Virus record (IMG/VR): IMGVR_UViG_3300005002_000001
From: a virus
Strand: one strand, 5' to 3'
Length of the DNA stretch: 64,000 bases
Part shown: positions 24,181-24,367 of the stretch, in pieces
Position numbering within the stretch: the stretch's first letter is position 1
Layout: every line of letters starts with the position of its first letter
Program-made: the position numbers and the translations under genes
The notes under the pieces: generated by a model
Seen by the model: only the letters and a program-made list of their open reading frames with translations
Told to the model about the DNA's origin: nothing
Databases searched by the model: none

Positions 24181-24346
24181 CTTTTTCGATCGCTCTCTGA
24201 GCGTCGTCGACATCGTAGTCTGTCTGATCGATTTTGCGTTTCTCGCTTATCTGATCAGGCTCGACCGGACGCGCCGGGCGAAACCCAAACCTGTTTCGAA
24301 ATTCGCCTACTATCGTAAAGGAAAGACGAGAAGAAATCGACGCTGA
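24170..24346 (+). CDS. small single-TM protein (58 aa)
   Basis: hand translation MDLDFFDRSLSVVDIVVCLIDFAFLAYLIRLDRTRRAKPK...; overlaps upstream stop. Confidence 0.35.
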   Translation: MDLDFFDRSLSVVDIVVCLIDFAFLAYLIRLDRTRRAKPKPVSKFAYYRKGKTRRNRR

Positions 24347-24367
24347 TGCATAATCATGATTATGCAT
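24346..24367. promoter_or_regulatory. perfect 22-bp palindrome ATGCATAATCATGATTATGCAT centred on the metzincin start codon
   Basis: reverse complement identical; centre is tcATGa of CDS 24356; candidate operator. Confidence 0.45.

Follow-up and report, generated by a model that had tools for sequence, protein, structure and literature searches.

What does a long, perfect palindrome do when it lies across the start of a viral protease gene? The question arises in a 64-kb stretch of DNA from an uncultivated large-virus lineage (IMG/VR record IMGVR_UViG_3300005002_000001; the whole stretch is called the window below), in which a 24-bp dyad joins the end of a 58-residue open reading frame (ORF) to the start of a gene for a metzincin-type zinc protease. 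The palindrome is real, a cis-regulatory dyad under strong selection where one reading frame stops and the next starts, and it belongs to a familiar kind of element. As to how it acts, we tentatively favor an account that may well be correct: in the mRNA, the dyad would fold into a hairpin that masks the protease start codon, and the mask would be relieved by ribosomes finishing the 58-residue ORF.

The 22-mer ATGCATAATCATGATTATGCAT at positions 24346..24367 is its own reverse complement, as had been noticed in an earlier reading of this DNA, made without database searches (the sequence-only reading). The perfect dyad in fact extends one base further on each side, giving the 24-bp palindrome GATGCATAATCATGATTATGCATC at 24345..24368. 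No perfect palindrome in the window is longer; the runner-up is the 18-bp GGGTTCGTCGACGAACCC (58579-58596), which lies within a 1159-residue ORF (57981-61460). Among 200 mononucleotide shuffles of the window, four contained a palindrome of at least 22 bp and one contained a palindrome of 24 bp, and roughly 0.005-0.02 are expected by chance per window. The element forms an AT-rich island in surroundings of about 53% G+C. It is also unique. When up to three mismatches are allowed, the 22-mer has no second site in the 64 kb and none in 100 dinucleotide shuffles. The half-site does not occur elsewhere in the 64 kb at up to one mismatch and occurs only at chance level at up to two, and the 12-bp core (up to two mismatches) and the arms with a free center (up to three) likewise give chance-level counts. 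No exact copy of the palindrome was found in IMG/VR, and the core occurs once in each of the relatives described below, at the same junction each time.

The palindrome takes in the UGA stop codon of the 58-residue ORF (24170..24346, plus strand), crosses a 15-nt spacer, and reaches into the beginning of the protease gene; the stop codon (24344..24346) overlaps its first two bases. The product of the small ORF has a single hydrophobic segment and ends in a very basic tail at its C terminus. It is conserved in the clade, and gene callers predicted it in three contigs (the Joint Genome Institute (JGI) contig L001, L003, and L063); it matches no Pfam or PHROG family. The protease ORF offers two in-frame ATGs, one on the dyad axis and in the hairpin loop (24356..24358, plus strand) and one in the 3′ arm (24362..24364). 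The dyad had been described as centered exactly on the start codon. Its axis does pass through the first ATG of ORF 24356..24898, between A24356 and T24357, but the conserved start is most likely the ATG at 24362. In lineage L006, a 1-nt insertion (ATGATTAATGCG) throws the central ATG out of frame, and the protease starts at the second (MRRRFWILF...LAC); gene callers also picked the second ATG in L004/L005 and in L006. The central ATG is therefore probably not the conserved start. That the palindrome overlaps the translation start of the protease gene, as the sequence-only reading had it, is clear.

Seven further lineages carry the same gene pair (L033, L002/L003, L007, L064, L063, L004/L005, and L006), and conservation among them is the strongest evidence against mere chance. 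Five of them keep the 24-mer letter for letter: L033 (99% protein identity), L002/L003 (84%), L007 (81%), L064 (79%), and L063 (74%). L004/L005 (73%) retain the central 20 bp, and L006 (67%), which reads GACGCCTAATCATGATTAATGCGTC, retains the core TAATCATGATTA, a sequence present in all eight lineages. The four-fold degenerate sites of the protease gene, by comparison, are saturated: pairwise identity between distinct lineages is 0.29-0.52, and 2 of 38 such sites (5%) are invariant across six lineages. At least nine truly intergenic bases of the palindrome are invariant in six lineages. The codons just 3′ of the palindrome are free to vary (CGT CGG, CGA CGG, CGC AGG, CGA CGA, CGC AAG), as is the remainder of the signal peptide. 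Because the intergenic bases are invariant while the four-fold sites are scrambled, the alignment argues that this invariance cannot be neutral and that the palindrome is functional at the nucleotide level, under strong selection.

The junction also stands out within its operon. The nearest upstream canonical promoter-like site lies at 23228..23261 (plus strand; TGTAATCGA-N13-TAGAAT-N6-ATG 23262) and is conserved in relatives, its spacer and discriminator being free to vary. The operon that contains the palindrome probably starts at this site, and the palindrome sits midway in the co-directional gene string that begins there. Downstream of 23228, genes either overlap (junctions of -11, -11, and -4 nt) or are led by a Shine-Dalgarno (SD) sequence (AGGAG before 25434), and other internal genes of the window have AGGAG-type SD sequences or ATGA/TGATG overlaps. 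The palindrome junction alone in the operon has a 15-nt gap with neither an SD sequence nor a stop/start overlap. The 58-residue ORF is kept as a protein in every palindrome-bearing lineage and is not upstream of the protease gene in distant relatives. Conversely, the palindrome is restricted to the clade in which this ORF precedes the protease, with its stop always 15-16 nt before the second ATG and the same stop-next-to-hairpin layout in all seven lineages of the clade. About 30 relatives at ≤54% identity have different upstream genes and no palindrome.

As RNA, the 24-mer is predicted to fold into a 10-bp stem with a CAUG loop (-10.1 kcal/mol, z = -3.5), in which the AUG at 24362 has a pairing probability of 1.00. 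The protease start ranks fourth among 88 gene starts of the window for local pairing, and two or three of those above it are of the leaderless type described below, at which the upstream sequence would not be transcribed. From the sequence, its conservation, the predicted fold, the anatomy of the junction, and the co-occurrence with the 58-residue ORF, we infer that the hairpin folds in vivo, that it blocks initiation, and that ribosomes relieve the block. The 58-residue ORF and the protease would share a polycistronic mRNA in which the hairpin begins at the G of the UGA stop and its 3′ arm holds the AUG at 24362. Because the protease has no SD sequence and no stop/start overlap, free ribosomes would be unable to start there. 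A ribosome with UGA in its A site covers roughly the next 12-15 nt, which would take in the whole 5′ arm. With that arm held in the mRNA channel, the AUG would be single-stranded and free just ahead, at a distance of 10-16 nt. The terminating ribosome, or a new one, would then initiate at this AUG, so that coupling would proceed by RNA unfolding, by re-initiation, or by both. Protease output would be tied to, and never exceed, the output of its small membrane partner. The observed layout puts the stop where the 5′ side of the stem begins and the start within the 3′ arm, separated by a 15-nt spacer; such coupling would use this anatomy.

The most divergent palindrome of the clade bears on the same point. 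In L006, the third outer pair is changed on both sides, from U:A to C:G, and the outer 5 bp still pair; the insertion creates a 1×2 internal loop that this outer pairing spans. Such a register is meaningful for RNA, not for a rigid, symmetric protein-DNA complex. A plain -10 element does not explain the invariance of the palindrome either, since promoters of the same genomes vary both spacer and discriminator. The sequence-only reading had offered an RNA hairpin that sequesters the start codon as its alternative. That alternative fits the anatomy better than an operator does, but the covariation that would accompany it is almost absent.

Several observations weigh against the hairpin as the functional form. 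The RNAalifold covariation term is +0.45, and the pair in L006 is the single compensatory change; two outer pairs are missing from L004, uncompensated, and folding of the L006 sequence gives a weak hairpin (centroid -6.8 kcal/mol, z ~0, start-codon pairing 0.36). Covariation has little room here because most pairs have a partner fixed by the stop, the start, or the first codons. More pointedly, the loop and the three inner A-U pairs, which are structurally the freest, are the most invariant part (TAATCATGATTA in eight lineages). This pattern points to sequence-specific recognition, and structure alone leaves it unexplained. Furthermore, a start-codon hairpin is not consistent across the wider protease family, as represented by ~30 relatives at ≤54% identity: L008, L010, L011, L013/L039, and L035 have strong start hairpins, and many others have none. 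A family-wide start-codon hairpin was rejected for want of a consistent signal among these relatives. Finally, a stable structure immediately after a stop codon, a "ribosome termination structure" (RTS), has been reported to inhibit re-initiation (PMC7518266), which makes the sign of the hairpin's effect uncertain and not readable from the sequence.

Other signals were sought at the site. Rfam 15, which includes selenocysteine insertion sequence (SECIS) and read-through elements, gave no match at gathering score in the window and only noise (E ≥ 2.2) at the palindrome. No intrinsic terminator is reported there, and the stem is not followed by a U-run. In the window the helix could be lengthened outward by CGACG/CGUCG, but L002 and L063 do not keep this extension, and it was rejected. 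Avoidance of restriction sites was rejected as well: ATGCAT, TCATGA, and CATG occur as often as expected. The 58-residue ORF and the protease ORF (24170-24898) share one frame, with a single UGA between them followed by C-I-I-M-I-M..., and the arrangement holds in every lineage but L006, in which the 1-nt insertion shifts the frame. UGA read-through, if it occurred, would yield a two-pass membrane-anchored protease. However, genes of the window end in UGA more often than in any other stop (58 of 94), and recoding was rejected on this ground; the broken frame in L006 makes a conserved fusion product unlikely.

The principal rival operates on DNA. In the sequence-only reading, the dyad was a classic operator at which a bound dimer would occlude both promoter and start codon; in the form considered here, a viral or host dimer binds the dyad and either blocks transcription into the protease gene or represses a weak CATAAT promoter. 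We regard this account as possible but unlikely. Its appeal lies in the dyad itself, which is perfect and in which 24 of 24 positions, the center included, are invariant in lineages whose neutral sites are saturated. Full invariance fits sequence-specific protein contacts better than it fits structure alone, and the site is an AT-rich island with CATAAT at the genome's usual -10 distance from the ATG at 24362. Yet a second copy is absent, and half-sites do not exceed chance in the 64 kb; recurrence of the half-site was what the sequence-only reading had looked to as its check, and its absence weakens the operator. No canonical promoter is present at the site, which has no TGTAATC box, no T at position 1 of the hexamer, and no sigma-70 signal. 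The insertion in L006 breaks the spacing of the half-sites, yet complementarity survives in the bulged register. No helix-turn-helix, ribbon-helix-helix, repressor, or other DNA-binding Pfam family was detected among the ~57 ORFs put through family scans (~100 are predicted in the window), most of which are ORFans matching no family at all, in a genome that is incomplete. Operators commonly recur or overlap core promoter elements, and the gp71 stoperators of mycobacteriophage L5 are asymmetric and number ~30 per genome. The palindrome resembles such sites in that a dyad in a short operon gap could block RNA polymerase, and it differs in being single and symmetric. A resemblance to the 7-1-7 boxes of the Fur/Zur type does not extend to the spacing, which is 6-4-6 or 9-6-9 in the palindrome.

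A further rival requires a description of how this virus appears to mark its promoters. In 14 of 88 genes, the ATG is preceded by a TAnnAT hexamer at a distance of 6 nt (12 genes) or 7 nt (2 genes), and other offsets are almost never seen. In 12 of these 14, a TGTAATC box lies 13-14 nt further upstream, so that the class reads (G)TGTAATC(G)-N13/14-TAnnAT-N6(7)-ATG. The sites with both boxes, all on the plus strand, are at 645-678, 950-983, 1585-1618, 1859-1892, 2525-2558, 5164-5197, 9460-9493, 12848-12881, 22560-22594, 23228-23261, 26524-26559, and 42739-42773; the hexamer alone precedes 38855 (plus) and 29184 (minus). Relatives keep both boxes, whereas the spacer and the 6-nt discriminator vary freely. 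The position of the hexamer, 6-7 nt before the ATG, implies leaderless mRNAs, and the unusual TGTAATC box suggests a virus- or host-specific sigma factor or activator.

Within the 5′ arm of the palindrome lies a -10-like hexamer, CATAAT (24349..24354, plus strand), 7 nt before the ATG at 24362 and the exact complement of ATTATG (24359..24364). Two leaderless-type promoters, at 26560 and 9494, have the same spacing, and ATAATCAT-N4-ATG is common to this site and the one at 26560. The hexamer nonetheless lacks two features of the class: it has C at position 1, as none of the 14 do, and no TGTAATC box accompanies it. A scan for the generic sigma-70 consensus reported no promoter at the palindrome. 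The earlier claim that a bound protein would occlude a promoter here is thus weakened, since CATAAT, without T at position 1 or TGTAATC, blank in the sigma-70 scan, and in mid-operon, does not fit the promoter grammar of this genome.

One can still combine the logic of phage T4 gene e with a leaderless start. CATAAT would then be an internal -10 element; transcripts beginning at about A24362 would be translated, and read-through transcripts would be silenced by the hairpin. The palindrome would exist because CATAAT exactly complements AUUAUG, and the short transcripts would lack the 5′ arm. This scheme is more doubtful than an operator. In its favor are the offset of CATAAT, which is one used by the -10 hexamers of the genome, and the ATAATCAT-N4-ATG also found at 26560. 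In addition, many distant relatives have TAnnnA/T 5-7 nt before the protease start, which suggests an ancestral promoter of the protease's own. At the canonical promoters of genes 29184 (minus) and 42774, hairpins hold the ATG in their 3′ arm, and their 5′ arm precedes the point at which the transcript is predicted to start. The inverted repeats concerned, which are strong, are ATCCTCATCTT...AAGATGAGGAT at 29177-29218 (gene 29184, minus) and CCCATGG-N10-CCATGGG at 42755-42780 (gene 42774, plus), each with the -10 element in its loop. Leaderless-type starts are also more structured than others, although weakly so (Mann-Whitney p ~0.02). Precedent comes from the T4 genes e, soc, 49, and I-TevI, whose start sites lie in a hairpin with a late promoter in its 5′ strand (PMC3014915). 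In the gene e group, as here, the start codon is in the stem and a -10-like element is in the 5′ strand, and an envelope-acting or extracellular product would be silent in read-through transcripts. The T4 late promoter, TATAAATA, however, gives leadered transcripts with an SD sequence, whereas the geometry here would give a leaderless one and the candidate promoter has no TGTAATC.

That box, present at 12 of 14 promoters, is absent here, and position 1 of the hexamer is C. In L006, the hexamer is CCTAAT, in which the critical A at position 2 is gone. The discriminator CATGATT is invariant, whereas real promoters vary theirs. Hairpins at the canonical promoters are not clearly conserved in relatives, and a general rule of conserved masking hairpins at such promoters was rejected: the structure excess (p ~0.02) is there, yet conservation is unclear. 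A self-complementary promoter/start-codon module, in which only transcripts born at the AUG are translated and read-through is silenced, is therefore improbable. Were it real, it would merge the temporal gating of T4 gene e with leaderless initiation in one 24-bp element.

A unique DNA-processing site is very unlikely. Here the dyad would be the core of a tyrosine-recombinase, Xer/dif-like, or telomere-resolvase target (9-bp arms, center TCATGA), or a replication or packaging signal, and it would merely occupy the only non-coding bases available. Such a site could be single in 64 kb, perfectly symmetric, and invariant in sequence, as the palindrome is, and its inner arms, GCATAA-N6-TTATGC, resemble what we take to be the inner arms of Escherichia coli dif. 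Processing there would, however, split two conserved partner genes within a compact operon of co-directional genes; the ORFs scanned matched no recombinase, integrase, or telomere resolvase family; L006 carries an asymmetric 1-bp insertion; and 24 bp is short for a resolvase target. A chance palindrome without a function of its own, kept by coding constraint alone, is hardly credible: the stop codon, two ATGs, and the Ile and His codons do constrain part of it, but at least nine intergenic bases are invariant in six lineages against 5% of four-fold sites, adjacent signal-peptide residues vary freely, and only ~0.005-0.02 such palindromes are expected per window.

The reading in which the mRNA hairpin masks the start codon can be set beside known translational controls. 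The coat-protein translational operators of MS2 and Qβ are bulged, non-palindromic stems. In these, as at T4 RegA sites, a short start-codon RNA is read sequence-specifically by a protein, and such a protein would explain the invariant loop and inner stem of the palindrome; the palindrome is neither bulged nor asymmetric like those stems, and its RNA-binding partner is hypothetical. RegA sites are covered in PMC3014915. Phages and operons provide well-documented cases of coupling in which a start-site hairpin is unfolded, phage f1 genes VII/IX and MS2 coat/lysis among them (PMC12548453). These systems share with the palindrome a hairpin over the downstream start, an upstream ORF that ends in or beside it, weak downstream signals, and a compact viral operon. 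They differ in that the present element is a perfect, invariant palindrome with almost no covariation, has no SD sequence, lies at +15 nt rather than in an overlap, and is known here from sequence. RTS elements (PMC7518266) are likewise stable mRNA structures right after a stop within an operon, but they are described as insulating and as a statistical tendency, not an invariant element that contains the next start codon.

The gene that the palindrome would control encodes a metzincin-type zinc protease (24362..24898, plus strand; probable start ATG 24362..24364 in the 3′ arm) of 178 or 180 residues, depending on which ATG starts it. Its zinc motif, HExxHxxGxxH, is present as HELGHAFGAQH, and H126, E127, H130, G133, and H136 are invariant in 45 homologues. 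An AlphaFold model (predicted local distance difference test score, pLDDT, 92.7) has the metzincin catalytic-domain fold, and its best Foldseek matches in the PDB are snapalysin (4hx3, E = 7e-7), karilysin, and MMP-3. The protein begins with a lipoprotein-type signal peptide (MHRRIVALFLFVVAFIAC...; MHRR-IVALFLFVVAFIA-C), whose lipobox Cys18 is invariant in 45 sequences. The identification as a secreted metzincin thus stands on motif and fold, and the invariant Cys refines it to a predicted lipoprotein. Pfam matches (M10, M12, and others) are all below threshold (13-17 bits against gathering scores of 20-27) and reflect the motif only, which indicates an uncurated family of virus-restricted metzincins. 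Members of the family are found on IMG/VR viral contigs as long as 369 kb and are all but missing from 185,579 species genomes; an identical protein is encoded on a 4.4-kb JGI metagenome contig. More distant homologues have clade-specific conserved motifs of their own directly before the start codon. A palindromic ATACGTAT lies just upstream of the protease start in L016/L017 (about 2954-2965/2969-2980), L049, L051, and L053, and GATAGGTAC precedes it in L013, L014, and L039. In L013 and L039, GATAGGTAC is set in a 9-10-bp hairpin, the two differing by a U-G wobble and in loop sequence. The window also holds a second, larger metzincin-like ORF of 274 residues (41914-42738, plus strand; Reprolysin_5, E = 2e-7; Peptidase_M10, E = 1.6e-5). 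It has TGTAATCGA upstream, at 41865, but with an ~18-nt leader and an AGGAAG box.

The window as a whole is a gene-dense, mainly ORFan, virus-like genome. It has no tRNAs and no likeness to known phages save one weak 115-nt blastn match, and its large ORFs have no PHROG match. TGA, TAA, and TAG account for 58, 26, and 10 of 94 stops, respectively, and since all three stops are in use, the standard genetic code applies. Between the left and right ends of the window, G+C content drops from 0.63 to 0.44. The coding strand switches at ~44.6 kb, and 44946-63895 (minus) holds very large ORFs (994, 969, 959, and 1159 residues) without Pfam or PHROG matches except for a Laminin_G_3 domain in the 1159-residue ORF. 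Neighboring paralogues at 44946-46124 and 46133-47389 both begin MPKYRGRVDC. The product of an 882-residue ORF (15937-18585, plus strand) strongly matches Pfam models of the eukaryotic Major Vault Protein (shoulder domain PF11978, E = 8e-30; Vault_3; Vault repeat; SPFH), and a second SPFH/Band-7 protein is encoded at 31167-32102. A vault-protein homologue amid bacterial-type signals in a virus-like genome is unusual. So is the auxiliary gene set, spread over 22595-23227, 24895-25404, 25676-26281, 29735-31107, 33790-35503, and 42774-44446, which includes an AlkB-like 2OG-Fe(II) oxygenase, a fatty-acid hydroxylase, a truncated class-II aminoacyl-tRNA-synthetase-like protein, a HAD hydrolase with nucleotidyl transferase, an ADP-ribosylglycohydrolase, a Thg1-like tRNA-His guanylyltransferase, an Rnl1-type RNA ligase, and a dCMP deaminase. 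Four otherwise unrelated ORFs of 93-316 residues, at 20986 (plus), 21581 (minus), 22534 (minus), and 27966 (plus), have in common the N-terminal motif M(K/R)I.(L/I).(D/E)L(R/K)..I.EAL, which could be a targeting, packaging, or processing signal. Finally, a perfect 16-nt inverted repeat, CGGCCGACAGCATACG / CGTATGCTGTCGGCCG (33322-33337 and 33376-33391), has its arms 38 nt apart within ORF 33309-33629.

All of the candidate mechanisms for the palindrome are of known kinds, and the genome around it may prove the more rewarding subject: it has a leaderless-type class of promoters, a vault-protein homologue, and many genes without a detectable family. The palindrome itself is a compact control element of a secreted protease gene in an uncultivated large-virus lineage in which most genes lack known relatives. 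If the promoter-in-hairpin scheme were true, the T4 trick for delaying dangerous genes would have been reinvented with leaderless mRNAs. If the hairpin instead masks the start codon until ribosomes finish the 58-residue ORF, the junction would let the unfolding and re-initiation models of translational coupling be told apart in a clean natural setting, free of an SD sequence that could confound the outcome.

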